This document shows positions 3,135-54,500 of a stretch of DNA of 64,000 nucleotides, piece by piece. The notes below the pieces were generated by a model. The model saw only the letters and a program-made list of their open reading frames with translations, had not been told where the DNA came from and made no database searches. The position numbers were made by a program, and so were the translations under genes. This stretch comes from Squalus acanthias (lineage: Eukaryota): NCBI GenBank assembly GCA_030390025.1, contig CM059435.1:87978001-88042000 (forward strand), read 5' to 3'. The stretch's first letter is position 1. Each line of letters starts with the position of its first letter.

Positions 3135-3875
3135 TGGAAACGATAATCTGGGACAAAATGAACAGTCACTTGGACAAGTATGGATTAATTAAGGAAAGCC
3201 AGCACGGGTTTGTTGAAGGCAAATCATGTTTAACTAACTTGATTGAGTTTTTTTGATGAGGTAACAGAGAGGGTTGATGAGGGCAATGCGGCTGATGTGG
3301 TGTACATGGACTTCCAAAAAACGTTTGATAAAATGCCACATAATAGGCTTGCCAGCAAAGTTGAAGCCCATGGAATAAAAGGGACAGTGGTAGCATGGAT
3401 ACAAAATTGGCTAAGTGACAGGAAACAGAGAGTAGTGGTGAACGGTTGTTTTTCAGACTGGAGGAAGGTATACAGTGGTGTTCCCCAGGGGTGGGTACTA
3501 GGACCACTGCTTTTCTTGATATACTGTATATTAATGACTTAGACTTGGGTGTACAGGGCACTATTTCAAAATTTGCAGATGACACAAAACTTGGAAGTAT
3601 AGTGAACAGTGAGGAGGATAGTGATAGACTTCAAGAAGACATAGACAGGCTGGTAGAATGGGCGGACACGTGGCAGATGAAATTTATCGCAGAAAAGTGC
3701 GAAGTGATACATTTTGGTAGGAAGAACGAGGAGAGGCAATATAAACTAAAGGCTACAATTCTAAAGGGGGTGCATGTACAGAGAGACCTGGGGGTATATG
3801 TGCACAAATCATTGAAGGTGGCAGGGCAACTTGAGAAAGTGGTTAAAAAGCATACGGGATCCTGGGCTTCATAAA
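3135..3875 (+). mobile_element. CR1 LINE, left part (RT), 5'-truncated and frameshifted
   Basis: SQHGFVEGKSCLTNLIEFF, DVVYMDFQKTFDK, SGVPQG, ISKFADDTKLG. Confidence 0.9.
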
Positions 3876-4829
3876 CGCCTCCACTACTTGCCTTCAAACA
3901 GCCACCTAACCTCAGAAGTACCATCGTTCGCAGCAAATTACCCAGCTTTCAGGATAACAGCGACCACGACACCACACAACCCTGCCATGGCAAACTCTGC
4001 AAGACATGCCAGATCATCAACACAGATACCACCATCACACGTGAGGACACTACCCACCAGGTACATGGTACATACTCATGTGACTCGGCCAACGTTGTCT
4101 ACCTCATACGTTGCAGGAAAGAATGCACCGCGGCATGGTACATCGGCGAGACCATGCAGACACTGAGACAACGTATGAACGAGCACCGCGCAACAATCGC
4201 CAGGCAGGATTGTTACCTCCCAGTCGGGGAACACTTCAGCAGTCAAGGACATTCAGCCTCGGATCTGCGGGTAAGCGTTCTCCAAGGCAACCTTAGAAAC
4301 ACACGACAACGCAAAATCATCGAGCAGAAACTGATAGCCAAGTTCCGCACTCATGAAGACGGTCTCAATCGGGATCTTGGGTTTATGTCACGATACATGA
4401 CGTGATCCGGACTCGAGTCGTCGTTAGCTTGTTCACAGATGTGATTCCCAGTAAAAAAGTAAAAATTTTCCCAGTAAAAAAGTAAAAATTTTAAAGCTTT
4501 TCGTTTTACATACAGACGGCAGCTTTTGACACGTTAGAACCCCTGCGACTACACCTCATTGTCTCAGTTGTATCTTGCTATGTCTTTGATGTGGTACCTT
4601 CCTGGCTGACTTAATTAACTTTATCACACCTCGGCAGATAGTCAGGATGATTTAATTTAGTGGTCTGCAATTGAAAGGTACACATGCTTTGTTTTCTATC
4701 TATATATGCTTTGGCGATTCTGTATCTAATTTACTTCACCTGAGGAAGGAGCAATCGATAGCTCCGAAAGCTTGTGATTTCAAATAAAACTGTTGGACTA
4801 TAACCTGGTGTTGTGCGACCTCTCAATTT
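3875..4829 (+). repeat. 5' pseudo-LTR of the Penelope element
   Basis: Matches 7011-7965 at offset 3136; only two substitutions seen by eye (near 3904 and 4674). Confidence 0.95.
4736..4777 (+). ncRNA. Minimal type I hammerhead ribozyme in the 5' pseudo-LTR
   Basis: UCAC-CUGAGGA-A-GGAGC(aaucgaua)GCUCC-GAAA-GC-UU-GUGA: 4-bp stem I, intact core, 5-bp stem II, palindromic AGCU in place of stem III. Confidence 0.85.
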
Positions 4830-4864
4830 TGTCCACCCCAGTCCAACACCGGCATCTCCGCATC

Positions 4865-7541
4865 ATGACCACTATCGACACCACAAACTGCCGGCTCAAA
4901 GTGGAGAGAATCGCCAAGAAGATCGCGCATATCGACACCGACATCAAGTATCTACAGAGATGCAAGAAAGCAGACAAGATCCCGAAAGGACTACAGATCA
5001 CGAACCCACTCAAGTCGACATACAACACAGACTACGCTGAGAGACTCTGCCGTCGTACCTCTCGCACACTCCTCAACCATCTCGTACACCAGCTCTACAG
5101 CAAACGCCACAACCTCGAAACCAAGATAGAGTCCATGCTCTCAGCCTGTGCTCAGGACACAGCAGACCAGTTACGAGACACCACCAAACAGACGAGGCAA
5201 CGGAACTACGCTGCCTACATGCGCATCAAGAACAGGAAGCTTGAGAAACTCGGCATCACCACCAGCAGCAACCAAGCCTCCCCCGGTACCACGGCTGCAA
5301 CCACAGGGAAGTCCATCGTCAACTTGTCCGACCATACCCTTCAACCAGACGAAATCGAAGTTCTCGCCCTAGGGCTCAAGTTCTGCCCAACCACCAAAAT
5401 GGACCCCATCGGTCTCGCGGCAGACACGGAGGAATTCATCAGGAGAATGAGGCTCCGGGAATACTTCCACAAATCGCAAGATGTCAGCAACAAACCCAAT
5501 GAGACAATCAATGATCCAGAACAGCAGACGGAGGGACTCGCAGTGCAGCAACCGAAGAAAAAAGTCAAACTGGACCCCTCCGGAGGGTCGCTGCCCCAAG
5601 CTTGACATGTATGCTCAAGCTGTCAGGAGATGCATCAACGCCAGATTCATCAGCCGCACTCACAAGACAGTCCAGAATGTCACCCGAGCACAACGCAACG
5701 CCATCCACGCTCTCAAGACCAACCGCAACATTGTCATCAAACCAGCGGACAAAGGAGGAGCCATCGTCATACAGAACAGAACGGACTATTGTAAAGAAGC
5801 ATACCGACAACTGGACAACCAGGAACACTACAGACAGCTACCCGCAGATCCGACCAAAGAACACACCCGCCAACTCAATAGACTGATCAAGACCTTCGAT
5901 CCAGACCTTCAAAACATCCTACGCGCTCTCATCCCACGTACTCCCCGCGTGGGAGACTTCTACTGCCTCCCAAAGATACACAAAGCCAACACACCCGGAC
6001 GTCCTATCGTATCAGGCAATGGAACCCTGTGTGAGAACCTCTCTGGATACGTCGAGGGCATTCTGAAACCCATCGTACAGGGAACCCCCAGCTTCTGTCG
6101 CGACACTACAGACTTCTTACAGAAACTCAGCACCCACGGACCAGTTGAACCAGGAACACTCCTTGCCACGATGGACGTATCGGCACTCTACACCAGTATC
6201 CCCCACGATGACGGCATCGCTACAACAGCCTCAGTACTCAACATCAACAACAGCCAATCTCCAGACGCCATCCTACAACTCATCCGCTTCATCCTTGACC
6301 ACAATGTCTTCACCTTCGACAACCATTTTTTTACCCAAACACACGGAACAGCCATGGGGACCAAATTCGCACCCCAATACGCCAACATCTTCATGCACAA
6401 GTTCGAGCAAGACTTCTTCGCTGCACAGGACCTCCAGCCAACGCTGTACACCAGATACATCGACGACATTTTCTTCCTTTGGACCCATGGCGAAGGATCA
6501 CTGAAAAGACTACACGATAACATAAACAAGTTCCATCCCACCATCAAACTCACCATGGACTACTCCTCAGAATCGGTCTCATTCCTGGACACACGAATCT
6601 CCATCAAAGACGGACACCTCAGCACTTCACTCTACCGCAAGCCCACGGACAACCTCACGATGCTCCACTTCTCCAGCTTCCACCCTAACCATGTTAAAGA
6701 AGCCATCCCCTATGGACAAGCCCTGCGAATACACAGGATCTGCTCAGACGAGGAGGAACGCGATGGACACCTACGGACGCTGAAAAACGCCCTCGTAAGA
6801 ACGGGATATGACGCTCGACTCATCGATCGACAGTTCCGACGGGCCACAGCGAAAAATCGCATAGACCTCCTCAGAAGGCAAACACGGGACACAACCAACA
6901 GGGTACCCTACGTCGTCCAGTACTTCCCCGGAGCGGAGAAACTACGCCATGTTCTTCGCAGCCTTCAACATGTCATCGATGACGACAAACACCTCGCTAA
7001 GGCCATCCCCACGCCTCCACTACTTGCCTTCAAACAGCCGCCTAACCTCAGAAGTACCATCGTTCGCAGCAAATTACCCAGCTTTCAGGATAACAGCGAC
7101 CACGACACCACACAACCCTGCCATGGCAAACTCTGCAAGACATGCCAGATCATCAACACAGATACCACCATCACACGTGAGGACACTACCCACCAGGTAC
7201 ATGGTACATACTCATGTGACTCGGCCAACGTTGTCTACCTCATACGTTGCAGGAAAGAATGCACCGCGGCATGGTACATCGGCGAGACCATGCAGACACT
7301 GAGACAACGTATGAACGAGCACCGCGCAACAATCGCCAGGCAGGATTGTTACCTCCCAGTCGGGGAACACTTCAGCAGTCAAGGACATTCAGCCTCGGAT
7401 CTGCGGGTAAGCGTTCTCCAAGGCAACCTTAGAAACACACGACAACGCAAAATCATCGAGCAGAAACTGATAGCCAAGTTCCGCACTCATGAAGACGGTC
7501 TCAATCGGGATCTTGGGTTTATGTCACGATACATGACGTGA
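4865..7541 (+). CDS. Penelope polyprotein (N-terminal domain, reverse transcriptase, Cys-rich linker, GIY-YIG endonuclease) with one frameshift near 5555-5566
   Basis: ATG at 4865 (MTTIDTTNCRLK...). Second frame has IKPADKGG, LPKIHK, GRPIVS, MDVSALYTSI, GTAMG, RYIDD, CxxxxCxxC linker and VVYLIRC...WYIGET...RMNEH. Confidence 0.9.
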
Positions 7542-7965
7542 TCCGGACTCGAGTCGTCGTTAGCTTGTTCACAGATGTGATTCCCAGTAAAAAAGTAAAA
7601 ATTTTCCCAGTAAAAAAGTAAAAATTTTAAAGCTTTTCGTTTTACATACAGACGGCAGCTTTTGACACGTTAGAACCCCTGCGACTACACCTCATTGTCT
7701 CAGTTGTATCTTGCTATGTCTTTGATGTGGTACCTTCCTGGCTGACTTAATTAACTTTATCACACCTCGGCAGATAGTCAGGATGATTTAATTTAGTGGT
7801 CTGCAATTGTAAGGTACACATGCTTTGTTTTCTATCTATATATGCTTTGGCGATTCTGTATCTAATTTACTTCACCTGAGGAAGGAGCAATCGATAGCTC
7901 CGAAAGCTTGTGATTTCAAATAAAACTGTTGGACTATAACCTGGTGTTGTGCGACCTCTCAATTT
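7011..7965 (+). repeat. 3' pseudo-LTR of the Penelope element (endonuclease coding end plus 3' UTR)
   Basis: Direct repeat of 3875-4829; the ORF track gives the same C-terminal peptide ending at 4405 and 7541. Confidence 0.95.
7872..7913 (+). ncRNA. Minimal type I hammerhead ribozyme in the 3' pseudo-LTR
   Basis: Identical to 4736-4777. Confidence 0.85.
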
Positions 7966-8580
7966 CATAAATAGAGGCATAGAGTACAAAAGCAAGGAAG
8001 TTATGATGAACCTTTATAAAACACTGGTTCGGCCACAACTGGAGTATTGTGTCCAATTCTAGGCACCGCACTTTAGGAAGGATGTGAAGGCCTTAGAGAG
8101 GGTGCAGAAAAGATTTACAAGAATGGTTCCAGGGATGAGGGACTTCAGTTACATGGATAGACTGGAGAAGCTGGGGTTGTTCCCCTTAGAGCAGAGAAGA
8201 TTGAGAGGAGATTTGATCGAGGTGTTCAAAATCATGAGGGGTCTAGACAGAGTAGATAGAGAGAAACTGTTCCCATTGGCGGAAGGGTCGAGAACCAGAG
8301 GACACAGATTTAAGGTGATTGGCAGAAGATCCAAAGGCGACATGAGGAAAAACTTTTTTACACGAGTGGTTAGGATCTGGAATTCACTGCCTGAAAGGGT
8401 GGGGGAGGTAAATTCAATTGTGGCTTTCAAAAGGGAATTGGATAAGTACCTGAAAAAAAAATTGCAGGGCTATGGGGAAAGGGCGGGGGAGTGGGACTTG
8501 CTGAAGTGCTGTTGCAGAGAGCCGGCACGGGCTCGACGAGCCGAATGGCCTCCTTCTGTGCTGTAACCATTCTATGGTTT
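7966..8580 (+). mobile_element. CR1 LINE, right part (ORF2 C-terminus and 3' end)
   Basis: Continues GFINRGIEYKS from the left part; ALERVQKRFTRM, RRLRGDLIEVFK; ends GAATGGCCTCCTTCTGTGCTGTAACCATTCTATG. Confidence 0.9.
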
Positions 8581-24564: not shown

Positions 24565-26059
24565 ATAGTTCTGTACATTATAGCCTGACTGACAACAACA
24601 CTCTCTTGGTATCAAAGGAATCAAAAAGGAGGGCTGATGACATGCTAGGAATGACTGGTCAGGGAGAGAACATAAATACTCCTGACTGGTTTATGATATT
24701 CTCTCAGCTTTGAAAGTGTACTGCCTTGATACTCTAATGCTCTGTCGAACACCACAATGTTGTGCAAGGTAAGAAAGTCTCAAACTTCATTCAAACCCAA
24801 GGGCACTTTCATCAAATGTGGTTATCTTTTTTATTCTCCTCCAGCTTCCACTTTATTCCTGCTCTCTTGAAGGCAATAACTCAGTTTGGGAGAACGTTCC
24901 ACAGGTTGCTGGGATGATTTGACTGTGGGCACCATCAGAGTCAACCCCAATACTGTCCTCAGCCGACATCCACACACTACTGGCAAGGGACACAGGATAA
25001 TGATCAGCAGGGGGAACCTTGGTTCATTTTTTTTCTCCACGCTACCTTGGGGATACCGAGGCCAATTGCAACATCCAACCCTCCCCACTGCTGTTCCAGC
25101 TGAGATCAGCTATTTCAGCAGAAGCCAGGGACTGATCCTGATCTGTAAAGTCCTGTGATGTACCACATCATGCGTTTACCCACTGAGCTGCTAAGAGCAT
25201 CAGGTTATGAATTTATAATAGTTAGAAACTTTTTAAAATTCCATGTCAATCAGAGTGCTTTTTATTCTGCCTTCAGCAAACAAAATGAACTGCTCTTTCC
25301 CAACAGCAGTACAGAAATAAACTCTGTACATGAATGTAACATTTTAATCTAACGGAGTGCATTTTGTGCTATCTGATGGATGAATAATGCAATTATTGGC
25401 CATGAATTATTAAAAACAGCATATAACTAAAGGCGACTTCACTTTTATTATGACTGTATACAATGTTTCAGGTCCCTAAAATAGACGAGATAATCTTTTG
25501 CCTACATTTAGCTGCTGACTTAGATTACAGTACCAGTAACCTATTGAACCAGAAAGCATGAAGCTAATTGCTAAGATGATGCTTGTCATCTTGTTTTAAA
25601 TATGACTTGATGGAAATATTAATTACAGGGGAGCTTCAACCAATTCAAAAATGGCAACTTTCAACAATAGCTTGTATCCGTCACACATAATCAAGACTGA
25701 TATTTTAGCGCAATACTAAAGTGCTATCTTTCAATTGGGGCATTAAAACCAAGGTGGATGTAAAAGATCCCATGATACGATTCAAAGAGCAGGGAGTTCT
25801 CCTGGTGTCCTAGCCAACATCCCAAGCCTCCGTCAACCAACACCACCAAAAATACAGATTAACCAGTCCTTCATTTCAATTGCTATTAGCAAGACAGTGC
25901 TGTGTGGAATTGCCTGCCATGTCTGCCGACATAACAACATGACTGTACTTCAAAAGTAATTAATTGAGACATTCTGTGAACATTATAAGGTCCTATGTAA
26001 ATCTTTCGTTCATTTATCTATCACCTTTAATTTAGTAAAATAGCACTTTACAGGGATGG

Positions 26060-29929: not shown

Positions 29930-30545
29930 ATAGAAACAGTGAATGTAACAGCACAGAAATAGGTTGTTTCGCTCCACATGAACCAGCTCGTCTAATTACA
30001 CTCTCCTAATTACTCCCCATATCCTTTAATTAGGCTCTTTTTTCAAGCAACTATCTAATTTGCTTTTAAAATAACTTATGGATTCTGTTTCAACAACACT
30101 TTGTGTGAGGAATTCCCCATTATAGCCATCTATGTGTAAAGATTTTTTTTCTAAACCCCCTTTTAATTCTTTTTGTGATTGTCTTAAATTTGTGCCCTCT
30201 CATAACCAGTCAGTGGAAATAATCTATCACTATGTATCTCATCATAACCCTTCATACAATAGCAAAATACTGCGGATGCTGGAAATCTGAAACAACAACA
30301 GAAAATGCTGGAAACACTCAGCAGGCCAGGCAGCATCCGTGGAGAGAGAAACAGAGTTAACGTTTCAGGTCTGGGACCCTTCGTGATCTTGAAGAATTTA
30401 TACTATAATTTTTTCATTGCTTTTACATTCTTCCTATAATGAGGCGTCTAAAATGGTACACAGAACCCCAACTGTAGCCCAAGGTCTTGTACAAGTTCTA
30501 CATTACTGTCTTATTTTTGTATCCTATGCCTATAGATACAAAACT
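29930..30545 (-). mobile_element. Old CR1 3' fragment hosting the Penelope fragment and abutting the MITE
   Basis: Decayed similarity to the other CR1 3' ends in this window (cagcacagaa, aatttgtgccctct, ggtcttgtacaagtt). Confidence 0.55.
30258..30385 (-). mobile_element. Solo terminal fragment of the second Penelope family
   Basis: Reverse complement matches about 38640-38767 and is truncated inside the hammerhead core. Confidence 0.8.
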
Positions 30546-30547
30546 AA

Positions 30548-31440
30548 GGGGTAAAAATTCACTTGGTTGCGCCACCCGTTAGCGCCTTAAGAGGGCGCTA
30601 ATGGGGCGCAAAGCCGCTAACACCCGGGCGCAGCGATGGTTGCGCCGCTCGAGAACTTAACTTGAGATTGTGCGGCGGCGCTAAAACTTACCGCTGCGAC
30701 CACCTGCGCGCACAGATTGTGACGTCATTCCATGGTGCAACGCCCTTGGGGCGCCCCGTAGCGGAAATTGAGTGGCGCCCCCTGCCTTACCGCCTGGCGC
30801 TTCCAACGACCAGAAGACTGGAACGCTATCAATCGCTGTGGGGCTGGGGGGGGCGCTATTTAAAGGGGGCCTCTTCCTGTCTTTTATTGTTGGTGGCATT
30901 TTTGAACTACGCATTCTGAGAGAGAGAGGGAGAGACTTCTGGAGAGATTCAACGTTGTGTGAAGGAGTTTTGGGTACTGAGCAGCACTTTGCAGGTTCAT
31001 TTTGATTTGCCATTCCTTGTATCGATTTAGCAGAGACCGTGGGAGCTGCACTCTGAGCTCTTTGCCTGGTGCTCTCCATTGTTCTTTCCAGCACATTTGA
31101 TGTGCAAGTCTCTCCAGGCCGAGATTCAAGGCAGCAATGAACAGGATGTGGATGGAAAGCAAGATTAACCATCCCCTTTAAGAACTGGCCCGTGCCATTG
31201 TGTGTGTGTTCCATTGCTGACTGACATTACATGAGCTTCGCCAGCGCTCCGAGTTAGCGCCTCACTGCTTGGCCTTTGCGCCTTAAGAGAGGTGTGCAGC
31301 GCCTGCTTTAGCGCTCCACTCACCTCCCGGGGCGGTAAAAGTGAAGTTTCCCATCAGTGCCGATAATTAGCGCCAGGCGCTAATATTTGCGTCCGGACGA
31401 TATTTGCGCCCCAAATGGGGCGCGACCTAATTTCTACCCC
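30548..31440 (-). mobile_element. CpG-rich PIF/Harbinger-type MITE, copy 2 (inverted relative to copy 1)
   Basis: TIRs GGGGTAAAAATT and AATTTCTACCCC with a perfect 3-bp TAA target duplication (30545-30547, 31441-31443). Confidence 0.88.
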
Positions 31441-32324
31441 TAAGAATTTTGTTTGCCTTTTTCATATTTAGAGATTTTTCCTTAAGATTTGTGCTGAGAG
31501 CCATTGCTGTAACCTATGCTCAGCAAATCAAATTCACATGAGCAGAGTGCTGGAGCTACTCTCGATACTGGTGGGCAGTTACACAGTATTTATCTTACTT
31601 ATTTAAAACACAAGAGTATGCATATATGCATCAAACTTTGTATGGGCATGAGACCTGTCCACGGATTCCACCCCCCCCCCCCGCCCCCCCACACTCATCC
31701 CTGCTAAAGCTGATGATTCATACTAGGGTACGGTTTAATCTGTAACAGTAGCCCTACAATATCCTGCAGCAAATGACAGGTGAAGCTGAGCAGCGAGTCC
31801 CTGAGGCGATTTGACATCACAGCTGAACCCAGTCACTGTCCTCACCCAACAATCATACTTGCCAGGAGTCAATAGATAGTAATCAGGAGCACAAATATTA
31901 GCCATTTTTTTTTGCATTCCCTAACCAGTTTTGATATTGAGGTCAACCTCTGCCCTGGCTTAGATCAGCTAACTCGGTGCAGACCAGGAATCTAACCCGG
32001 GGCATTCCTCATCAAATGGCTCAGTAGCACATTGGCCAGTGCATTTATACACTCAGCCATTTCAGAACTTGCAGGCTTTTTTTTTTGTGGATTTTTACCT
32101 GCCCAAGGTGGTCATCAGAAGCAGCAGGCAGTACAGATGGGAATAAGTGGCAGTTAGGACAAAAGTGAATGGACACTGGAGTAATCTGGCCAGTCTAAGA
32201 TTTGGGTTACAAGGGCACTGTCAGTTTTTACTGGCAATATGTAAAATTATCATTGAGAGACTTATCCCTAAGAGACGCCTGGTTTTTGTCAGCACTGACA
32301 AGGAACTCATGGTTTTGGCTTTTA

Positions 32325-33350
32325 ATTCATTCCTGGGATGTGGGCGTCACTGGCAAGGCCAGCATTTATTGCCCATCCCTAATTACCCTTGAGAAGGTGG
32401 TGGTGAGCCGCCTTCTTCAACCACTGCAGTCCGTGTGGTGGAGGTACTCCCACGGTGCTGTTAGGGAGGGAGTTCCAGGATTTGGACCCAACGACGATGA
32501 AGGATCGGCGATATATTTCCAAGTCAGAATGGTGTGTGACTTGGAGGTGAACTTGCAGGTGGTGGTGTTCCCATGCGCCTGCTGCCCTTGTCCTTCTAGG
32601 TGGTAGAGGCCCCAGGTTTGGGAGGTGCTGCCGAAGAAGCCTTGGCGAATTGCTGCAGTGCATCTTGTAGATGGTACACACTGCAGCCACGGTACGCCGG
32701 TGGTGGAGGGAGTGAATGTTTAAGGTGGTGGATGGGGTGCCAATCAAGCAGGCTACTTTGTCCTGGATGGTGTCAAGCTTCCTGAGTGTTGTTGGAGCTG
32801 CACTCATCCAGGCACGTGGAGAGTATTCCATCACACTCCTTACTTGTGCCTTGTAGATGGTGGAAAGGCTTTGCGGAATCAGGAGGTGAGTCACTTGCCA
32901 CAGAATACCTAGCCTTTGACCTGCTCTTGTGGCCACAGTATTTGGTCCAGTTAAGTTTCTGGTCAATGGTGACCCCAGGATGTTGATGGTGGGGTATTTG
33001 GTGATGGTAATCCCATTGAAAGTCAAGGGGAGGTGGCTAGACTCTCTCTTGGTGGAGATGGTCATTGCCTGGCACTTGTGTGGCGCGAATGTTACTTGCC
33101 ACTTATCAGCCCAAGCCTGAATGTTGTCCAGGTCTTGCTGCATGCGGGCACGGACTGTTTCATTATCTGAGGAGCTGTGAATGGCGTGGAACATTGTGCA
33201 ATCATCTGCGAACATCCCCATTTCTGACCTTATGATGGAGGGAAGGTCATTGATGAAGCAGCTGAAGATGGTTGGGCCTAGGACACTGCCCTGAGGAACT
33301 CCTGCAGCGATGTCCTGGGGCAGAGATGATTGGCCTCTAACCACCACAAC
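32325..33350 (-). mobile_element. CR1-clade LINE 3' fragment of a different family
   Basis: AGVPQGSVLGPTIFSCFINDLP, MFADD, YKAQVRSVMEYS. Confidence 0.88.
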
Positions 33351-34419
33351 CAACATTATAACAACGAGCAGTGGTTTGGTTTCAGGATGAATATCACCTT
33401 TATTTACCAGCAGAAATTGGATGCATCCCAGACACACCTATACTAACACTGGATGCAACAGTATCATACCTGCATTGGCATCACTGTGGTCACAGGCAAA
33501 CTTACACAAAAAACCATTGCATTCTACAGTACAGTAGCCTCGCATCTGATTAGACAGAGTCAAAGAAAGTGCTGCTGTCATTAAATTCACTGGTTTATAG
33601 AGGATAACATACACATAAGAGAGTGTTCAAAGACAGTAAAACATTGAGGGATTGGAATCTCAGTCCAGAGGCTGTGTGCTACAAATTCAGGTCTGCCGTA
33701 GATATCTTCGTGTTCAGTGACATAATTCACTCCTGTAAACCATTTTAGCATCTTACTTTTATGGCAGTTGACTCATATTTCTCTAAATCTACTTGCACAG
33801 GATCGTAACTCAGTGTAACAATATTACCCACTTGTAACCTGAACTGGATAATTTGTGTCTTTTGCAGGTGCACTTCAATTGCTCTGAAGGCAGAATGAGC
33901 AAACAACTTGCAGGATGAGGCATGATATAAATCAATAAGTTGCTTTATTTCACAGTAAAGTGAACATACAAAACGACAGTTATGATTAAGAGTTATTTAA
34001 TTCAAGCAGTACAACTTATCTTCACATAATGTCGCAAAACAAAGAAATGGCCACACTTTCCCATAATAGTGGGACATCTAATTCAACTTAAAGAAGATAA
34101 TTTCCGACTATTCTCTCCTGTACTCCAACCTTCTTGCAGCCTTTAGCTACGGACTACCTCACTTCAAAACCTTCTACATGACTGCCCGTCTGTTTTATCG
34201 CTTATCAAAGTAGGCTTACTATCTAGACAGCTTACTATCTACCAATTCAAACCCCTTTTGTTTTAAAGTTTTATGAATGCATTTCAAAAGACATTTAAAT
34301 GAGCTCTTTTGCCCAATCCTTCCTGTGGAAATATTACCAAAAGATTGCAAAGCGCAACACTGCATTATTCTTACTCTTATTTTATCTATACAGGGCATAA
34401 TATATTATGTATCTCCATC

Positions 34420-34813: not shown

Positions 34814-37059
34814 CGAGCAGATCGCCCATAGTGTTGCTCACGCAGAGTCGGAGGATACACTGTTTTGCTATCTCCTTGGCCATATAAATAGTACCCCCAA
34901 AGGCAGATCTCATCGCGCTGTGCTGCCTGCACTGATGTGAAAGGCAAGTTGAAAAAACTAAAAGCCTCTTTAATATTTGAGCTAAAAAGAGGCTCTTAGT
35001 TTGCTAAGGCACTTAAATATTTAATACTATATATTGGCATAGTATTTCATGTTCTTAAAACAGATTCCAGTTGATTAATAAGTTCAATAAACGCTTAATC
35101 CCTATGGTAGGAAAGCAAGGAATGAGGTCGCTTGGAGTTCGGGGCTGCAGTATCGGATCATGATTCCCAATGTGGGTGTTGGGGAGGGAGTGGGGGGCGG
35201 GGGGGAGAGGAGGAAAGAGTGGGTAAGCTTGAAGCCCAGCCACTAACAACAAGTATATGAAACCGAGAGGGGAGGAAGGAGTGGTAAACGGCCGCGACGC
35301 CAATCTGGTGGCCGAAGATGGGTCAAGCAGATAGCCCAGGCACTAGGTTCAAGGCCAGACTATGCAGGGCAAGCGAGGATCAAGTAGGACCAAAATCAGG
35401 TGGCCACAAATAGAATACGCAAGTGGAGGGAACCACTGCAGTGGGTGGCATTTGGTGTCCCAAAAATTGGCATTTAAACATTTGAAAAATAGGGGAATCA
35501 CCCAAAAATCAGGTGAAAGAAACAAAATGGCAGGAGGACCTGGGTGACTCAGTGCCATTTTGCAGCAGGAGGCTTACAACCATTGCATGACAGGGAAATA
35601 GAATTCTCCCATTTTAATATGTTGATAAAGTATTCTGATATAACACAACGCTGGCATAAAAAGCATAATTCAAAGGTCGCGACACGGGAAGTAAGCTAAA
35701 CAGGGAGGGGCAGGGAGTGCAAATCATCTGCAAGTTAAGAAAACGAACTTGCATTTATATAGCGCCTTTCATGAACTCAGGAAGTCCCAAAGCACTTCAC
35801 AACCGTTGAAGTACTTTTGAAGTGTAGTCACTGTTGTAATGTATGGAAATATGTCAACCAATTTATGCACAGAAAGATCCCACAACCAGCAGTTGATCAG
35901 TCTGGAGTTCCATTAACATTTTGCAATCTGCATTAACCAATTGCAGCTAAGCACTTATATCCTTGTGAAACGCTACCATTACTGTGCTTCACTATCACAA
36001 CGTTGTAAAATCGCTCCGAACCTTCTTCCCCTCACTTTCCTTGGACCCCATCCCTTCTTCCAATCTTACCCCTTGCCGTGTTTTCACTATCGCCCCTGAC
36101 CTTCCCCTCTCTTACCCCAAATGATCAGTCCTCAGCAAAAGTCTTAGCTTCATCCCGTTACACCCCCACCTCAATGAATTTCAAACTCAGGGCACGACGC
36201 CGAGCTCCTTCGTCACCGAGCTCTTCTTCCGTTGCCTTCGCCTCTGGGCCCACTTCTATGGCCAGGAGTCTTCCTCCCCCCTCCCCCCTCCCCACCCCAC
36301 GTACAGCGGACTCTTTCTCCCCTCTTCAGAATTATAGTTCCACCTGGACCCCTCCCTCTGGCCTCTTACCCCCCTCTAGATCTTTGCATTGGGAACTGCC
36401 ATGTGACATTGGCCGTCTCAATTTCTCTGCTCCCCTTACTCACTCTAACCTACCTTCTTCTGAACTTACAGCACTCCATTCTCTCAGATCCAACCCTGAC
36501 ATTGTCAGTAAACCTGCTGACAAGGGTGGCACTGTTGTTGTTTGGCGAACCAACCTCTACCTTGCGGAGGCTGAATGCCAACTCTCTGACACCTCCTCTT
36601 ACCTCCCCCTGGACCATGGCCCCACTACCAAACATCAAGCCATGGTTTCCAAGAGTGTCACTGACCTCATCTCTTCTGGAGATCTTCCCTCCACGGCTTC
36701 CAACTTCATAGTCCCCCAACCCCGCTTATACCTCCTTCCCAAGATCCACAAACAGGACTGTCCTAGTAGACCCATCGTTTACGCCTGTTCTTGTCACACG
36801 AAACTGATTTCTTCCTATCTCAACTATTATTTCTCCCCTTGTCCAGTCTCTTCCTACCAACAACTGCGACTCTTCCGACGCCCTCCACCACTTTAACAGT
36901 TTCCAGTTTCCTGGCCCGAACCGTCTCATTTTCATCATGGACGTCCAATACCTCTACACCTCCATCCCCCACCAGGATGGCTTGAGGGCTCACCGCTTCT
37001 TCCTTGAATGGAGACCCAACCAGTCCCCAACCACCACCACTCGGGGGGGAGGGGGGGGG

Positions 37060-37829
37060 NNNNNNNNNNNNNNNNNNNNNNNNNNNNNNNNNNNNNNNNN
37101 NNNNNNNNNNNNNNNNNNNNNNNNNNNNNNNNNNNNNNNNNNNNNNNNNNNNNNNNNNNNNNNNNNNNNNNNNNNNNNNNNNNNNNNNNNNNNNNNNNNN
37201 NNNNNNNNNNNNNNNNNNNNNNNNNNNNNNNNNNNNNNNNNNNNNNNNNNNNNNNNNNNNNNNNNNNNNNNNNNNNNNNNNNNNNNNNNNNNNNNNNNNN
37301 NNNNNNNNNNNNNNNNNNNNNNNNNNNNNNNNNNNNNNNNNNNNNNNNNNNNNNNNNNNNNNNNNNNNNNNNNNNNNNNNNNNNNNNNNNNNNNNNNNNN
37401 NNNNNNNNNNNNNNNNNNNNNNNNNNNNNNNNNNNNNNNNNNNNNNNNNNNNNNNNNNNNNNNNNNNNNNNNNNNNNNNNNNNNNNNNNNNNNNNNNNNN
37501 NNNNNNNNNNNNNNNNNNNNNNNNNNNNNNNNNNNNNNNNNNNNNNNNNNNNNNNNNNNNNNNNNNNNNNNNNNNNNNNNNNNNNNNNNNNNNNNNNNNN
37601 NNNNNNNNNNNNNNNNNNNNNNNNNNNNNNNNNNNNNNNNNNNNNNNNNNNNNNNNNNNNNNNNNNNNNNNNNNNNNNNNNNNNNNNNNNNNNNNNNNNN
37701 NNNNNNNNNNNNNNNNNNNNNNNNNNNNNNNNNNNNNNNNNNNNNNNNNNNNNNNNNNNNNNNNNNNNNNNNNNNNNNNNNNNNNNNNNNNNNNNNNNNN
37801 NNNNNNNNNNNNNNNNNNNNNNNNNNNNN
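37060..37829. other. Assembly gap (770 N) flanked by poly-G runs
   Basis: Seen directly. Confidence 1.
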
Positions 37830-38667: not shown

Positions 38668-39067
38668 TCTGTTTCTCTCTCCACAGATGCTCCCTGACCG
38701 GCTGAATATTTCCAGCATTTTCTGTTTTTATTTCAGATTTCCAGCATCCGCAGTATTTTGCTTTTGTAAAATCCCTCATACATTCACTTTCAAATGTTAA
38801 TTTTGAATTTCAATTGGCTATCTGGCCTACAAAATCCAGCGACTCACCCTGCTGCATTTACCCCATTTCTAATTGCAGTTACATTTCTTATACTGCTGCG
38901 TAAAAGTTCAGCAGACTTGGTGGTTTGGAAGGTTCTGTTCTCAAGGCTGCGCTCTCGAAGGTTGATAAATCCTAAATGGTGGAAGGATCAGCACTGGGAA
39001 CATACCTTTCCAAACCAGCAGGCCTGCCAAATTCAAATGGCTGAATGCAGTGGCATAAGAAATATAA

Positions 39068-39268
39068 GTGAGAAGTCGCACAACACCAGGTTATAGTCCA
39101 ACAGCTTTATTTAAATCACAAGCTTTCGGAGCGCTGCTCCTTCGTCACCTGACGAAGGAGCAGCCGCTCCGAAAGCTTGTGATTTCAAATAAAGCTGTTG
39201 GACTATAACCTGGTGTTGTGCGACTTCTCACTTTTGTCCACCCCAGTCCAACACCGGCATCTCCGCAT
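39068..39268 (+). mobile_element. Non-autonomous Penelope-derived fold-back element
   Basis: Inverted arms 39066-39147 and 39150-39233 homologous to about 4740-4830, then a tail matching 4830-4866. Flanked by a duplication of up to 14 bp, CATAAGAAATATAA (39054-39067 and 39269-39282). Confidence 0.9.
39145..39182 (+). ncRNA. Minimal hammerhead ribozyme within the fold-back element
   Basis: UCAC-CUGACGA-A-GGAGC(agcc)GCUCC-GAAA-GC-UU-GUGA. Core and stems match 4736-4777; only N7 and loop II differ. Confidence 0.8.
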
Positions 39269-42200
39269 CATAAGAAATATAAACAGAGCAACAAAGGTAC
39301 AGCTCCATGGATAAACTAGCCTCTCATCTGAAATCTGCAAAGACAAAATATCAGAGATATTTTATTAACCAAAGCAGAGCAGGAAGGGGAAATCTGGGGA
39401 ACTAAGCCAAGGCTGCCCAAGCAGAGAAGCAATTAAACTCTTAAGTTTTAGCAGATAGAGAACCTAAGCAGGAAGGTGCAGGTGTAAAAGACATTAAGTG
39501 GAGTCCAAATGGCAGAGATATACATAGCTAAGGCAGGGCAATGATGGGCCAAAAGCCTGAAATCTCAGTTCAGTCACTCATCATTCAAGAATTTCAAGTC
39601 TGTGCTCCAAGTGTTAAGAGGGACACCGAGAATTCCAAATACTCAAGATGCCCGGCAAAGGTCTGGGTGCTGCCAAATGCAGAGGTGATTTGTCAGAACT
39701 AGCTTAGCTGGATCCAGAGAAATCTTTTAGGTGAATCATCACAATCCTTCTTCCTAGTGCAACCTCCTTGAATCTCAGCTACAAGAGGGAGATTAGCCAG
39801 CACAAGGCAGGACACAGAATTAGTAACAACCAGAGTCTGTGCTAATATAACACATATATTCAACAGTAAGTACCTCAGAGCGTCCAATACAAGAAACTGA
39901 AAAATAATTCTACAGACAATCTGGTTTTTTTCTCTTTCCACTTCTAAAGACATTTTACTTACTGTCCCAGTTACTTTTTTTTAGATAAAGCATTAAGCAG
40001 CGAGAGTGCATTAAAACCAAGAAGAAACTTGGATTTCAATAGGCTTTGATTGACAGTGATATATTCACAACTGTTAAGATTTACTTTCATTCATCGCTAT
40101 GCTGTTCCAAGAGTTTCATTTTTATTTTAGTGCTGCTACTGATCTATACGTAGGTCAAAGATCTGGGTTTGAAGATCAAATGGTAATGATATGTAAGTGC
40201 AGCCTGGTAACAGGAGTAGATCAGTGATCCAGCTCTGCAAATAGTACTATATAAACTGAGCCAATCCAATTTCATTGGTGCTGGTTTATTTAGCATTTAG
40301 TCACAAGGTTTAATGTTAAATTAAAATCAAATAATTTACAAATAACACCATCATTGTTTACATGTGGCCCACTGTGCTCCATGGGGTGTAACTAAATGGC
40401 CAAAGAGAGAGTTTGGACACCTCTAATGTCATTCATTTGAGTTTATCAAATCACCTTGTGTTGAATTCCAAGCCAAATACACCTTTGTTACTATGCTAGC
40501 TCGGTCCCATGCCAAAACAATTCTTGGCATAGCAAAGCCCTGCAACACGGCCGAGCATTCAAGCATTCCTTATTGCCTAAATAACCCTAAATAATCCATT
40601 ACAGTTTGCAGGCTTGTTCTATCTTCCCATTAACAGGTTGTGTGTGTGTCCAACTGCGGCAATTCTGGAGTTACCAATCTCACGCTATTTCCACTTTTAG
40701 ATGAGTCTTTCCTAATATTAGTACTGCATGGATGATTGAGCTAGATCACAGTGAAATCTACCATCAAGTTAAATTATTATTTTTTAAGAAACGTAATTGT
40801 CACACCTCATGCCCCATCTGAGAGCATGGACAGGCAACCGTCTCCCAGGCCTCTGTCAATGATGGCCTTTAACTAATGGATGCACACTATTTGGCTAGTT
40901 CAACTCATCCACCAATTTTCCTTCTTTACAAAGAATCAAGACATACCAATCAAGCTTAGAAACTCAGAGTTCGGTCATTGTAGACACAAACCTGCACCCC
41001 TTAGCACAGCAAACTGATACAATAATAATGCTGTGTTAACAAACCATATACAATCACAGATTACCTTTAGAGAGACAGTACTAATATGCAAGGCCTCAGT
41101 ACAAAACATAATTTTTACCTCTGCTGAACAAGTTGGCAATTTACAAAATTACCAGGTATTTCAGATAAATCGCGCTCCTCTTTTCTTTTTCATGATCAAA
41201 TTGATTCCAACGAAGAAAAAAAGTGTTTTTAAAAATTGTACAGCAACGTGAAAACAATTCAGTGAAGTTACCTGACCTGCCAACCAAAAGCTAAATAATT
41301 TGGTAGATATTAATGAATAAAATATTGGGAGGTTTTATTTTCTGGCTTAATGGTTTTCTTCAAAGTCTGTGAAATGTGTATGTATAAAATGAAATCATGG
41401 TTCAAATGCATGAAAATGACATGGAAATAATGAATGCAGTGAAGACAGCTGACTTGCTGGCCAAAAATTGAATAATGTGTGTGTGAGGTACAAACTAATC
41501 AAATCTTGGACGTTTCATTGATGTGCTGGCTCAATGCTTTCTTTCAGAATCTGTGTAATGTGTACATATAACATTCAACAATGCCTCAATCACACAAGGC
41601 AGACATGGAAGTAATAAATTAATTTGGTGAGAGCACCTGACCATGGCCGCAAATTAAGTAATTTGTTTTCTGCAAAGTAGAATGAATGAAATCTTAGAGG
41701 TTTTGTTCGTATGCTGCCCAATACCTTTCCTCAAAGTCTGAATAAATATGAAATTAAATAATAATCCCTGAGTGTGCAAAGCAGGCATGGAAATAGTTAA
41801 TTGAGAGTGCCCTGATACAAGTCTTGAATTCCCATTTGCAATACCACTGGAGATCAACTAATATTAAAAGTCTTATACATAGCACTGTCACACACTTTCC
41901 ATAATACTTTTAGGTAAAACACTGAATTATAGATACAGTTATGCTAGCACACATGGTCAGGTCATTCTTCCCACAATTAACTCCCCTCAGCCCTGGTGTC
42001 CCCAAACACACTCTTCCATTTCCTCAAGTGCTGCAGGACACAAAGAAGTTAAAACAAACTAAAATTAAATGAACAGCTCCAAGTTGGATATAAAATGTAG
42101 GAAAGTTTATTCGTTTTAAAACAGTGATTCTTACAATTAGGGTCTCTTGACGTAATATATTACAGATGCAAAATAATGTTCCAGCTCATTTCCTCCAATA

Positions 42201-49314: not shown

Positions 49315-51567
49315 ATAGAACATAGAACAGTACAGCACAGTACAGGCCCTTCGGCCCTCGATGTTGTGCCGAGCATTGTCCGAGACCAAGATCAAGCTAT
49401 CACACTCCCTGTCACTCTGGTGTGCTCCATGTGCTTATCCAATAACCGCTTGAAAGTTCCTAAAGTGTCCGACTCCACTATCACAGCAGGCAGTCCATTC
49501 CACACCCCAACCACTCTCTGAGTAAAGAATCTACCTCGGACATCCCTTCTATATCTCCCCCCATGCACCTTATAGCTATGCCCCCTTGTAACAGCTGCCT
49601 CTACCCGAGGAAATAGTCTCTGAACATCCACTCTATCTATCCCCCTCATCATCTTATAAACCTCTATTAAGTCGCCTCTCATCCTCCTCCGCTCTAAAGA
49701 GAAAAGCCCCAACTCCCTCAATCTTTCCTCATAAGACCTCCCCCCCAAACCAGGCAGCATCCTGGTAAATCTCCTTTGCACTCTTTCCAATGCTTCCACG
49801 TCCTTCCTATAGTGAGGTGACCAGAACTGCACACAATATTCCAAATGTGCTCTCACCAAGGTCCTGTACAGTTGCAGCATAACCTCACGGTTCTTAAACT
49901 CAAACCCTCTGTTAATAAACGCCAACACACCATAGGCCTTCTTTACTGCTCTATCCACTTGAGTGGCAACCTTCAGAGATCTGTGGATATGAACCCCCAG
50001 ATCCCTCTGCTCCTCCACGTTCCTCAGAACCCTGCCGTTGACCCTGTAATCCTTATTCACATTTGCCCTACCAAAATGAATCACCTCGCACTTATCAGGG
50101 TTAAATTCCATCTGCCATTTTTCGGCCCAGCTCTGCATCCTATCAATGTCTCTTTGCAGCCGACAACTGCCCTCCACCTCATCCACTACTCCATCAATCT
50201 TGGTGTCATCAGCAAATTTACTGATCCACCCTTCAGTCCCCTCCTCCAAGTCATTGATAAAAATCACAAACAGCAGAGGACCCAGCACCGACCCCTGTGG
50301 CACACCGCTGGTAACTGGTCTCCAGTCCGAAAATGTTCCATCCACCACCACCCTCTGCCTTCTATGAGATAGCCAGTTACTTATCCAATCGGCCAAATTT
50401 CCCTCTATCCCACAACTCCTTACTTTCTTCATGAGACGACCATGGGGAACCTTATCAAACGCCTTACTAAAATTCATGTATACGACATCAACTGCTCTAC
50501 CTTCATCTACACACTTAGTTACCTCCTCAAAGAATTCAATCAAATTTGTTAGGCAAGACTTACCCTTCACGAATCCGTGTTGACTATCCCTGATTAAGTT
50601 ACCCCTTTCCAAATGGTCATAAATCCTATCCCTCAGGACCTTTTCCATTATCTTACCAACCACCGAAGTAAGACTAACCGGCCTATAATTACCAGGGTCA
50701 TTCCTATTTCCTTTCTTGAAGAGAGGAACAACATTCGCCACTCTCCAGTCCTCTGGCACCATCCCTGTGGACAGTGAGGACCCAAAGATCAAAGCCAGAG
50801 GCTCTGCAATCTCCTCCCTTGCCTCCCAAAGAATCCTAGGATATATCCCATCTGGCCCAGGGGACTTATCGACCCTCAGGTTCTTCAAAATTGCTAAAAC
50901 ATCTTCCCTCAGAACATCTACCACCTCCAGCCTATCCACCTTTATCACACTCTCATCCTCAAGAAGATGGCCCCTCTCCTCGGTGAACACTGACGAAAAG
51001 TATTCATTCATCACCTCTCCTATCTCTTCTGACTCCATGCACAAGTTCCCACTACTGTCCTTGACCGGCCCTACCCTCACCCTGGTCATTCTTTTATTTC
51101 TCACATAAGAGTAAAAAGCCTTGGGGTTTTTCTTGATCCGACCCGCCAAGGACTTCTCATGCCCCCGCCTAGCTCTCCTAAGCTCTTTTTTTAGCTCATT
51201 CCTTGCTACCTTGTACCCCTCAATCGACCCAACTGAACCTTGTTTACTCATCCTTACATACGCTTCCTTTTTCCTCTTGACTAGACATTCAACCTCTTTT
51301 GTGAACCATGGTTCTCTCACTCGGCCATTTCCTCCCTGCCTGACAGGGACATACCTATCAAGGACACGCAGTAATTGCTCCATGAAAAAGCTGCACTTTT
51401 CGTTTGTGCCTTTCCCTGATAGTTTCTGTTCCCATCTTATACTCCCTAATTCTTGCCTAATCGCATCATAATTACCCCTCCCCCAATTATAAACCCTGCC
51501 CTGCCGTATGGCCCTATCCCTCTCCATTGCAATAGTGAAAGTTACCGAATTGTGGTCACTATCTCCA
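49315..51567 (-). mobile_element. Young 5'-truncated CR1 LINE with uninterrupted 711-aa ORF2 segment
   Basis: ORF 49392-51527: KSPGPDGI, NYRPVSLTS, GVPQGSVLGP, FADD. TTCTATG-type tail; inserted into an L2 3' fragment. Confidence 0.95.
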
Positions 51568-54500
51568 CTTAGCTAGCACTTTGAATGTAGAAAAATGCCT
51601 GAAGGCAATTCAGAGGTGTAATGGAAAAAATGGATGCTGAGCTAAAGGAGGATGACCAAACATTAGGTGAAGCAGATGGGGCTTAAAAGGGGTGGGGGAA
51701 ATCCAGAGCAAGAGGCCTAGGCAGCTAACGGCATGGCTACCAGTGGTGGGGCGAGTGGAGGGAAGGATACACAAGAGGCTGGCGTCAGAGGAAGAGCGAG
51801 GTGGAGGGGGGGGAGGTTGTAGTGCTGGAAGAGCAAGGGCATGGAGGGAATTAAACAAAAGGATGAGCATTGTAAAATTTGAAGCATTGGGAGACCAGCA
51901 GACTGGCAAGGATACGGGTGCGGGGCAGGATATAGGCAGCAGAGTTTTGGATGAGCTGTTTGCAGTAATTTTCCTTTCCAAATACTTCTTGCACCACTGT
52001 ATCGAATCAATCCATCCCAAGAAAATATACTTTATCGGGTCATAAAATGCAATTTCTAGTTAAAATAAAATTTGAGCACGGCAAAGAGTGTTTCGGGTAA
52101 GAAATGTGCACACTAATGAGCAGTTATGCAGATTGGCAAGTCAGTACTTCTACACTGCATTTAAGCAAGAAAGAGGAATTTGTATATTAGAACACAGATG
52201 GTAGGAATGCTACCGGAAGCTAAAGGTGCAAATTTATCTTGTGTGGTATTATATTGAAGAGAAAAAAAGAAAAACAATTTCCAGTGTAAACTGATTACAA
52301 TTCAGTTTCTGCAAGTGTCCTTTGAATCTTGTTTCTGCAATATAGTACATCTTTTGGAGTATTATTTCATGCCATCTGATCTATACTCTGGCTTTGAAGG
52401 AGAGTATTATGCAAATTCTGGATGGATCAGATTCAGCTCTGATCAATAATGATCTGAATTGAATTTGATGAAACATATAACTGAGGCGTTGCGTAGAATT
52501 ATTAAACCATTTTTCAAGAGTGCTATTTAACAGGTTTGCTATGCTTAGAATTAGTTTAGTTTATTTTCCATTGTTTTCCTCTGAGATTTAACTACATTTT
52601 AGAAAAGACACTGCTGTAAACAGAGTGGATTATCCAGATGTGTTGTGGATAGAGTATACCCAAGAGTATAGAGCATAATAAGGGTAATGCTTGATAACAA
52701 GTGATGGAGGTGTTAAACACTTTGTCAAAGGCATCTAGATCTTTAACCATTTGATAGTTTATATTTATATATGTAATGTAATAAATATTTTTTTAGAAAA
52801 TATTACATGTGTATTGTAACTGAATGTTGAGCTTTACAGCAGGTAAACACTAATTGACTATGTTCAATTGGCTTAGGTGTTCCCTTGACTTGCCAGATTT
52901 GTAGTCGATTAGTCATGACCGTGAACAGTGGTTAGTCATTGAGGTGTTGTGTAGTGCTAACACTGACTGTGTGACATGCTGGCCCTTATGTTCCTTTTAT
53001 TGAGTTGAACACAAATTAACTGGCGTCTCTTGACAGTTTATAGTAACCAAAGCTCCACTTTGCTGGCGCGTGGCCAGTAACTAAAAGACAACCAACTATC
53101 TTATTCAAGGTTGAGTGGTGTTATTTTAACTTGTTGGCCTTCAATGCATATAAGGATGACCTGAAATATCAACGTTATTTTTTAAAGTGTACTCATGCTT
53201 TTTTATTTTTCAGTAATTTGTTTTTTGTGTGTGTGTTAGTTAGTTACTAGAGGGAAGATTGTTATAAATTCTTCATCCTGTTTAACCTTCATGTATCGCC
53301 AACTTTGGTGTCACGAAACTTCAAATGAATTGATTTCCTTTGGATCAATACCTGCTTGTAGTTGCATATCTAAACAACAACTTGCATACACAAACAAAGG
53401 ATAGCATGATGTTTCAGAGTGTCAGTGATCAATACATCATGTCACCTCAATCCAAAACCAGGATGTGAATGTGCTCAATAGCTTGAAGGGCTACGAAAAA
53501 CAGTTGAGCTTTGCATTGTCAGCTGAAGTAGATCGAGTATGTTACTGCTACCTCTTCTCATCCAGTATCTTCCTTTACACAAAGTCCAAAGTTATTTCCA
53601 GCATTCTCTTGTTGACGGGCATAAAAACAAGCCGCTGTTCAAAAAGCATGACATCTTTCCTAGAGATTTATATATGCATTAGTAACTATTGGAATATTCA
53701 GAATTATCAAGAGTATATAGGCACCGTCTTCCTGGTCACAGGTTCTTCGCCCCCTCCCCAAAAAAAGTCAGTTTAAATTTTGGTTTTGGTAACTCTTGTT
53801 CTTGCCTTGCAGCTTAACTGTACCATTGATGAAACAGAAATACCTGGTTATTTTAATTTAATTTTATTTATGGGTGGGTGTATGTAGGTAGTGAAGAGTA
53901 TTGATTATTTAAAATGGGTCAGTTTTTCCAGAGAGTATAGTCACTAATGCCCATGTACTGAGAATTTTGACAGTTAAATTACTCCGTACCACTGGGCATT
54001 CCTCCTCTAGTTTTAGGCTTGGATGGTTTACTCACACTTGTACCATAATTAATACAAGTCCTATTTGTCCAGAATAATTACTGCAGGGACTTGCAGTGTG
54101 AGAACCAAACTGACCTCGGCTGGCTAGGCCTAGAGTGCAGTGCCTTTCTGCAGTTGGACTTGCTGAGCTTTTGAGGAACCTGTGTGGAAAACCACTTGTA
54201 TGTTCAAAGGTAGAACTTAACCCTGCAAGTGTTGCGGTGCGGCAGCAATAAGCAGTTCAGGAGCTCTTTTATTTAACATCCGCAGCTTTATTTTATTAGC
54301 TGGAGTGCGCAGCTTCTCAATGAAAGGAGGCTGCCATAAAAGTCTTTTTAAATTGAGCCTGGAAGAAATGGTCAGCAATTTGCTAACTTGGTAACTATTG
54401 TAGCACACATGAGGTCATACTATGGGTTTGCTTGGGCTGTGTTTTTATTTATTTTTCCTCTGGTTGAAGTATAATATTACCTTTTTTTTATAAGCTGAAG

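Follow-up and report, generated by a model that had tools for sequence, protein, structure and literature searches.

Whether the hammerhead ribozymes carried in the pseudo-long terminal repeats (pseudo-LTRs) of Penelope-like elements (PLEs) cut the RNA before it is copied into a new genomic site is the question raised by an insertion in a 64,000-nt stretch of Squalus acanthias DNA (GCA_030390025.1, contig CM059435.1, positions 87,978,001 to 88,042,000; hereafter the window). Pseudo-LTR regeneration and the role of the hammerheads are stated open questions (PMC8557442, PMC2377424), and hammerhead pairs, dimer cleavage and a circle model have been published (PMC4209133; reviewed in PMC6765202). 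Since Penelope pseudo-LTRs with pairs of minimal hammerheads are documented across animals, the locus is an ordinary one, of value chiefly as a test case. An initial annotation had proposed that its two hammerheads could excise a 3136-nt RNA, which might circularise and be reverse transcribed more than once round. The analysis presented here somewhat favours another course, a young target-primed insertion of a Neptune-type PLE from RNA whose hammerheads were uncut.

Structure of the insertion

The Penelope insert extends over positions 3876-7963 (4088 bp) and is flanked by copies of TTCATAAA (Table 1). It comprises 1.30 units of 3136 nt, in agreement with the earlier estimate of about 1.3 monomers, and a single 8-bp target duplication bounds it in its entirety. 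Its two ends form a direct repeat of 955 nt (3875-4829 versus 7011-7965) with two mismatches (3904/7040 and 4674/7810), which indicates that the insertion is young. Identity between the repeats reaches +56 past the second cut (signed positions are counted from the predicted ribozyme cut), with +55 and +56 belonging to the target duplication too. The complementary DNA (cDNA) crosses each of the cut sites scarlessly, and the 5' truncation falls at an arbitrary point of the open reading frame (ORF). The host sequence is a long interspersed nuclear element (LINE), which we take to be CR1-type, with a Pfam RVT_1 match; since protein matches cover aa 427-551 to the left of the insert and aa 550-716 to its right, the Penelope element interrupts the LINE, whose frame resumes beyond the insert. 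The 3' untranslated region (UTR) holds a short tandem duplication of about 23 nt (4445-4493 and 7581-7629) which, being present in both repeats, is older than the insertion.

Second insertion and inferred start sites of reverse transcription

A second insertion, missed by the initial annotation as was a frameshift in the coding region, fixes the start sites. This 201-bp insertion (39068-39268) consists of two head-to-head solo pseudo-LTR arms of a sister subfamily. Its outer ends lie at +53-55 and +90-93, and the long copy ends at +54-56. In Anolis carolinensis Poseidon, two internal start sites past the ribozyme bound a 30-40-nt "tail" (PMC11167929; Frangieh et al. 2024), and by analogy the insert ends described here match these two sites, giving an inferred tail of 35-40 nt. 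The Poseidon protein is reported to prime from both DNA strands and its GIY-YIG domain to nick AT-rich DNA (PMC11167929). The inferred tail also resembles the 34-37-bp repeat of Drosophila virilis Penelope (PMC2377424). Partial tandems with pseudo-LTRs, an optional tail of 30-40 nt and a target duplication, which mark EN+ (endonuclease-containing) Penelope-like elements, are thus all found. As fixed internal initiation explains the end at +54-56, the 56-nt overhang beyond the cut, correctly positioned by the initial annotation and read there as the trace of a circle or tandem template, is by itself no sign of a circle and agrees with an uncut template no less than with a circle.

Both solo arms run through the cut site, stopping at -33 and -38, and the long cDNA crossed both cuts, so that a linear excised monomer was not the template for either insertion. 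The two stops are 3-8 nt from -41, where transcription is predicted to begin; linear RNA that had not been cut would end there, whereas a circle would have no end at this place. The arms of the 39054-39282 insertion join at a TCA-CC-TGA quasi-palindrome located at the 5' edge of the hammerhead, and are two 1-nt indels apart.

At the three 3' junctions (7964-7965, 39066-39067 and 39269-39271), target and element share 2-3 nt (TT, AA and CAT, respectively; n=3), which suggests short primer-template pairing; the Anolis start site has been described as non-homologous (PMC11167929). A 9-bp helix between +18-26 and +67-75 was predicted in the leader, with start site 1 in its loop, and was considered as a loading site for the reverse transcriptase (RT) but dropped in view of z-scores of -0.56 to -1.23. 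The region 4791-4852 contains two mutually exclusive 9-bp helices (+18-26/+67-75 and +32-40/+71-79) that share one strand. Two such helices occurred in 9 out of 1000 shuffles, the overall folding z-score being non-significant, and this modelled arrangement could possibly form a switch or pseudoknot around start site 1.

Hammerhead motifs

Repeat comparison and a descriptor scan confirmed the annotated pair of minimal hammerheads, two identical 42-mers offset by 3136 nt, and the cuts assigned after 4773 and 7909 agree with the motif anatomy. In the usual position numbering of hammerheads, each has stem I UCAC/GUGA, stem II GGAGC-AAUCGAUA-GCUCC, the core CUGAGGA (4740-4746 in the first copy), GAA, a stem III reduced, as annotated, to the palindrome AGCU (4769-4772) and U17 at 4773, together with one extra A at 4747 that had gone unmentioned. 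The sequence features of a PLE minimal type I hammerhead are therefore present, namely CUGANGA, the extra nucleotide, G10.1-C11.1, GAA, A15.1-U16.1, H17, a short stem I and a palindromic stem III. Scanning both strands of the window with a type I descriptor gave three motifs (4740, 7876 and 39149), whereas 100 dinucleotide shuffles averaged 0.05. The two copies in the long element lie within the 955-nt repeat and are one duplicated sequence, not independent evidence.

The Rfam search that the initial annotation had put forward as a check went against the motif being a hammerhead, with no family reaching its gathering score across the 64 kb and no match at E<=10 within 4600-4900. A covariance model built here from 13 relatives' motifs, of poor alignment and low information, ranked the three motifs of the window 11th-13th of 14 matches (E 3.6-4.5), with 10 chance matches scoring above them, and was therefore taken as uninformative. 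Nearest-neighbour energies were -21.9 kcal/mol for the active dimer, -24.4 kcal/mol for two monomers and -35.3 kcal/mol for a dimer with swapped stem II; the energy model does not favour the active dimer, and real cleavage is here a prediction. Loop II (4753-4760 and 7889-7896) contains the palindrome AUCGAU, which favours the off-pathway dimer in the energy model. Kissing of loop II as an aid to dimer formation was rejected, this palindrome being absent from the sister subfamily and from the relatives.

Conservation in relatives

The comparison was extended to 31 loci (L001-L031) in bacterial genome records sharing 24-43% protein identity with the element, which are probably eukaryotic host DNA carried in bacterial assemblies. 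When scanned with stem III left unconstrained, 15 of these loci yielded 21 cores, which reduce to 14 distinct motifs; the remaining 16 loci, many of them short or ending near the ORF, showed no core under the same scan. A palindrome of 4 or 6 nt (ATAT, ACGT, AATT, AGCT, ACGCGT, ACTAGT or ATATAT) followed GAA in 13 of the 14 motifs. All four A-xy-T palindromes occur and stem III co-varies, which supports ribozymes of the dimer type. The extra nucleotide was present in 11/14 motifs and U17 in 5-6/14. Palindrome and extra nucleotide are also features of the motifs published in PMC4209133. The one non-palindromic case (L007:4735-4775), upstream of a Penelope ORF, has a self-contained stem III (ACTC-G-GAGT) and lacks the extra nucleotide.

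Paired or tandem units are also found among the relatives. In L004, which closely resembles the shark element, two identical hammerheads are separated by 3497 nt, the ORF of 1006 aa is intact and the element ends within a (TA)n run at +33; L021-L023 form an array of about 3.8 units with a period of 3083 (6 and 4 mismatches in 3839 nt) and an intact 887-aa ORF; and L017 is a tandem of period 5441 with 1 mismatch in 2491 nt. Other repeated relatives, L003/L005 (L003 with a period of 6144), L001/L002 (99.6% identical over 5.1 kb) and L018, showed no hammerhead core in the scans used and, judging from sequence, may be core variants or ribozyme-less families.

Coding region and classification

The coding span measures 2677 nt, which is not divisible by 3, and uses two frames, with the frameshift located between about 5524 and 5565. 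The 881-aa homologue P0004 aligns to one frame with aa 1-217 and to the other with aa 216-880. As a single ORF covers the two frames in P0004 and in a further homologue, P0005, either this copy or the assembly is defective at the break, and an A6 run inside 5524-5565 makes an assembly error possible. The annotated location of the coding region (4865-7541) within the unit 4774-7909 is correct, but the frameshift means that it is not whole, that the copy is not autonomous and that the single uninterrupted ORF of an EN+ PLE is lacking.

The order of domains, RT followed by a C-terminal GIY-YIG endonuclease with CCHH, is that of EN+ PLEs. The RT was supported by a Pfam RVT_1 match to the Penelope protein (E 7.5e-9), and the motifs DKGG, MDVSALY, GTAMG, YIDD (nt 6456), VVYLIRC, WYIGET, RMNEH and GEHF were recognised. 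Domains and conserved motifs thus support the annotation of a Penelope element. The annotated minimal dimer-type hammerheads in pseudo-LTRs and the 3136-nt unit between the cut sites are likewise supported. A linker, CHGKLCKTC, occurs at nt 7119 and was found in 87/87 homologues with the YIG motif among the 120 homologues listed. Neptune elements are defined by a CX2-5CxxC linker, absent in Penelope/Poseidon, and by CCHH, absent in Hydra (PMC8557442); both are present, and by its domain architecture, which is the Neptune/Nematis architecture of that paper, the element is Neptune-type. The best named homologues were shark proteins (80-94% identity), which by itself points to a cartilaginous fish as the probable source. 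Of 271 conserved columns the main frame deviates at 3, no more than is seen among its closest homologues from sharks, which gives little support to a decayed parent mobilised in trans. A sequence search of the PDB gave 0 matches.

Candidate promoter and poly(A) signals

The TATA, initiator (Inr) and poly(A) consensus sequences and their typical spacings were considered for the region around the hammerhead. Five Inr-consensus matches were found in 4401-4780, one of which (4731-4737) predicts a transcription start near 4733. Across 15 motifs, including that of the window, TATAWA occurred 33-44 nt before C3 in 6 (local shuffle mean 0.35; 6 reached in 0/2000) and A[AT]TAAA within 30 nt past the cut in 5 (mean 0.74; 0/2000 shuffles), although these windows were chosen after viewing the sequences and the motifs are related by descent. 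When the window element was left out, the counts were 5/14 for TATA (0/2000) and 4/14 for the hexamer (2/2000). The TATA match is missing in 9/15 motifs and the hexamer in 10/15, with both present in 2/15. A TATA and Inr have been noted in a pseudo-LTR (PMC3846280), and the D. virilis promoter is TATA-less (PMC2377424).

From these sequence matches, the pseudo-LTR may tentatively be likened to a retroviral LTR, with TATA (4701), a start at about 4733, the hammerhead, AAUAAA (+10) and the reverse-transcription starts at +54-56 and +90-93. Under such a layout, 3' processing 10-30 nt past AAUAAA might, though we regard this as doubtful, leave a hammerhead at each end of the transcript and the start sites at the 5' end only. 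If the TATA and poly(A) signals are functional, the transcript would need a circle or a jump, and copying of the ORF might have to await circularisation by the ribozymes or a strong-stop jump; the solo head-to-head pseudo-LTRs would then conceivably represent failed strong-stop products. The poly(A) argument was not encountered in the literature examined, which included passages of PMC3601003, PMC3846280 and PMC2377424, with most subscription papers and all supplements outside its scope. Read ends from RNA sequencing (RNA-seq) have been reported at the Anolis start sites (PMC11167929), which by analogy suggests that some transcripts reach them.

Origin of the partial tandem

In the reading that we cautiously prefer, a single, recent target-primed insertion would have made the element from RNA with its hammerheads uncut at copying. 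The GIY-YIG domain would nick AT-rich DNA and reverse transcription would start internally at one of the two fixed sites, as described in the literature for another clade. Two origins of the more-than-unit length would be about equally likely, read-through transcription of a tandem array and a jump, guided by homology, from one repeated end of a one-unit RNA to the other. The hammerheads would be slow, dimer-only ribozymes that cut only once two pseudo-LTRs have come together, in all probability aided by protein, and would most likely trim the cap leader and the 3' end, a regulatory function not required for insertion. Copying from uncut RNA agrees with the ends of the long copy (+54-56) and of the second insertion (+53-55 and +90-93), with the tail ending at the ATG, and with the near-identical tandem arrays that exist in relatives (L021-L023, L017). 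It also agrees with published work in which, for the single active protein assayed in vitro, ribozyme mutants were unchanged in insertion, RNA left unprocessed was the main substrate and the Anolis ribozyme depended on protein (PMC11167929), dimer cleavage was low in vitro (PMC4209133), and Naiads without canonical hammerheads formed the same partial tandems and tails (PMC8557442). Several points weigh against it. The in vitro system used short Poseidon RNAs, not full-length Neptune RNA; RNA-seq reads over a ligated junction would look like uncut reads; the stops at -33 and -38 come from one insertion and could be due to 5' truncation of the usual kind or to the TCA/TGA palindrome folding back; and the promoter and poly(A) site are predictions. 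The remaining objections are those that speak for a circle.

In the circle model of Cervera and de la Peña (2014), a serious contender to which we give clearly less credence, the hammerheads at the transcript ends would pair via AGCU and excise a 3136-nt monomer that is ligated, and RT would run 1.3 turns from +54-56, regenerating a promoter-bearing pseudo-LTR. The seamless crossing of both cut sites and the 2 mismatches in 955 nt fit 1.3 turns of a circle, and the palindrome kept in 13/14 distinct motifs argues that cutting is under selection. Given the TATAWA (6/15) and A[AT]TAAA (5/15) matches, the transcript would carry one complete hammerhead at either terminus, and its start sites would be confined to the 5' end. 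Small hammerhead retrozymes of animals form circles (PMC7229834), and a single partial-tandem Penelope donor in Drosophila melanogaster gives mostly tandems again (PMC2377424), so that array read-through is not the sole source of tandems, although a template jump also explains this. On the other side, no demonstration of a circular full-length Penelope RNA was found in the literature searched, the ribozyme is dispensable in vitro and no RNA-seq ends were described at the cut site (PMC11167929), and the tandems of Naiads arise without canonical hammerheads. Moreover, two monomers are more stable than the active dimer by about 2.5 kcal/mol and the palindromic loop II favours a different dimer, TATA and hexamer matches are missing from most motifs in windows picked post hoc, and neither solo arm extends past the 5' edge of the ribozyme. 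Formation of the partial tandem by one insertion followed by another that homed into its pseudo-LTR, or by later unequal recombination appears improbable: the Poseidon protein cleaves its own ORF-pseudo-LTR junction in vitro (PMC11167929) and pseudo-LTRs were first interpreted as tandem insertions (PMC2377424), but here one target duplication bounds the whole insert, 4773-4866 contains no internal duplication or scar and 2/955 sites differ. Least credible of all is that the linear excised monomer (4774-7909) was the template or that the hammerheads are relics or chance matches. The monomer is contradicted by an insert extending 54-56 nt past its 3' end and 898 nt past its 5' end. The lack of an Rfam match, the weak scores with our own model and the bases at positions 7 (G) and 17 (U) would fit relics or chance, against which stand the excess of motifs over shuffles (3 versus 0.05) and the conservation of core, extra nucleotide and palindrome in distant relatives.

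Other features of the window

Table 1. Coordinates of the two Penelope-type insertions and their features in the window.
Feature	Position	Strand	Remarks
Target-site duplication TTCATAAA, left copy	3868..3875	+	8 bp, in host LINE (presumed CR1-type)
5'-truncated upstream copy (5' pseudo-LTR)	3876..4829	+	linker and GIY-YIG endonuclease end, 3' UTR, hammerhead
Candidate TATA box	4701..4708	+	39 nt before C3 of ribozyme; sole TATAWAWR in 4401-4780
Minimal type I hammerhead 1	4736..4777	+	predicted cut after 4773
Candidate poly(A) signal AAUAAA	4783..4788	+	10 nt past cut; second copy 7919-7924
"Tail" between two inferred reverse-transcription start sites	4826..4866	+	+53-56 and +90-93; ends at ATG (4865)
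Penelope ORF	4865..7541	+	N-terminal domain, RT, CX4CxxC linker, GIY-YIG endonuclease with CCHH
Minimal type I hammerhead 2	7872..7913	+	identical to first; predicted cut after 7909
Element 3' end	7910..7965	+	+54 to +56 past cut; TT shared with target
Target-site duplication TTCATAAA, right copy	7964..7971	+	
Target duplication of second insertion	39054-39067 and 39269-39282		14 bp
Left arm of second insertion	39068..39147	-	U4 of hammerhead (-33) to +53-55
Right arm of second insertion	39145..39271	+	complete hammerhead (cut after 39178) to +90-93

Elsewhere in the window, a degenerate fragment of a different Penelope family (about 36327-37020, plus strand; 33-37% identity to homologues) ends near an N gap at 37060-37829. 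LINE RT fragments were found on the minus strand at 49395-51572, with a 726-aa open frame, at 32382-33437 and at about 19324-20486. An inverted pair of about 900 nt (23664-24575 and 30537-31449) shows 83-86% complementarity, and many dispersed repeats resembling short interspersed nuclear elements are present.

Comparison with known systems

The element resembles the Neptune PLEs of PMC8557442 in domain order, linker and CCHH, a unit of about 3.1 kb, the partial tandem, a pseudo-LTR with hammerhead, the 30-40-nt tail and AT-rich targets. It differs in that the shark copy is frameshifted and sits in a LINE rather than a (TA)n repeat, the comparison being one of domains and other sequence features. 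The literature searched contained no paper on Neptune elements of sharks. With the metazoan PLE hammerheads of Cervera and de la Peña 2014 (PMC4209133) it shares type I topology, a 4-bp stem I, the extra nucleotide 9/10.1, G10.1-C11.1, a palindromic stem III and the occurrence of motifs in pairs, both at a spacing of about 3 kb and close together on opposite strands, whereas its stem II has 5 bp (7-8 bp in Schistosoma motifs), position 7 is G and loop II is palindromic.

As in Anolis Poseidon (PMC11167929), two internal starts past the ribozyme bound a tail, and priming from both strands fits the head-to-head insertion. The shark element belongs to a different clade, its start sites are located not inside the ORF but in the 5' leader, where the second coincides with the ATG, and target and element have 2-3 nt in common at the three 3' junctions. 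With its two insertions, the window carries over to a Neptune-type element the two-start-site rule described for Poseidon, and it excludes a linear excised monomer as template. Should the LTR-like layout be true, this young shark family would offer the first direct test of more-than-unit regeneration. Finally, the non-LTR retrozymes of animals (PMC7229834; bioRxiv 10.64898/2026.07.22.740005) likewise have type I hammerheads bounding the repeat unit, and circles have been shown for them, but retrozymes are non-coding, shorter than 1 kb and equipped with canonical hammerheads that make loop-loop contacts; a protein-coding circle of 3.1 kb, if demonstrated, would link telomerase-related retrotransposons with viroid-like replication.

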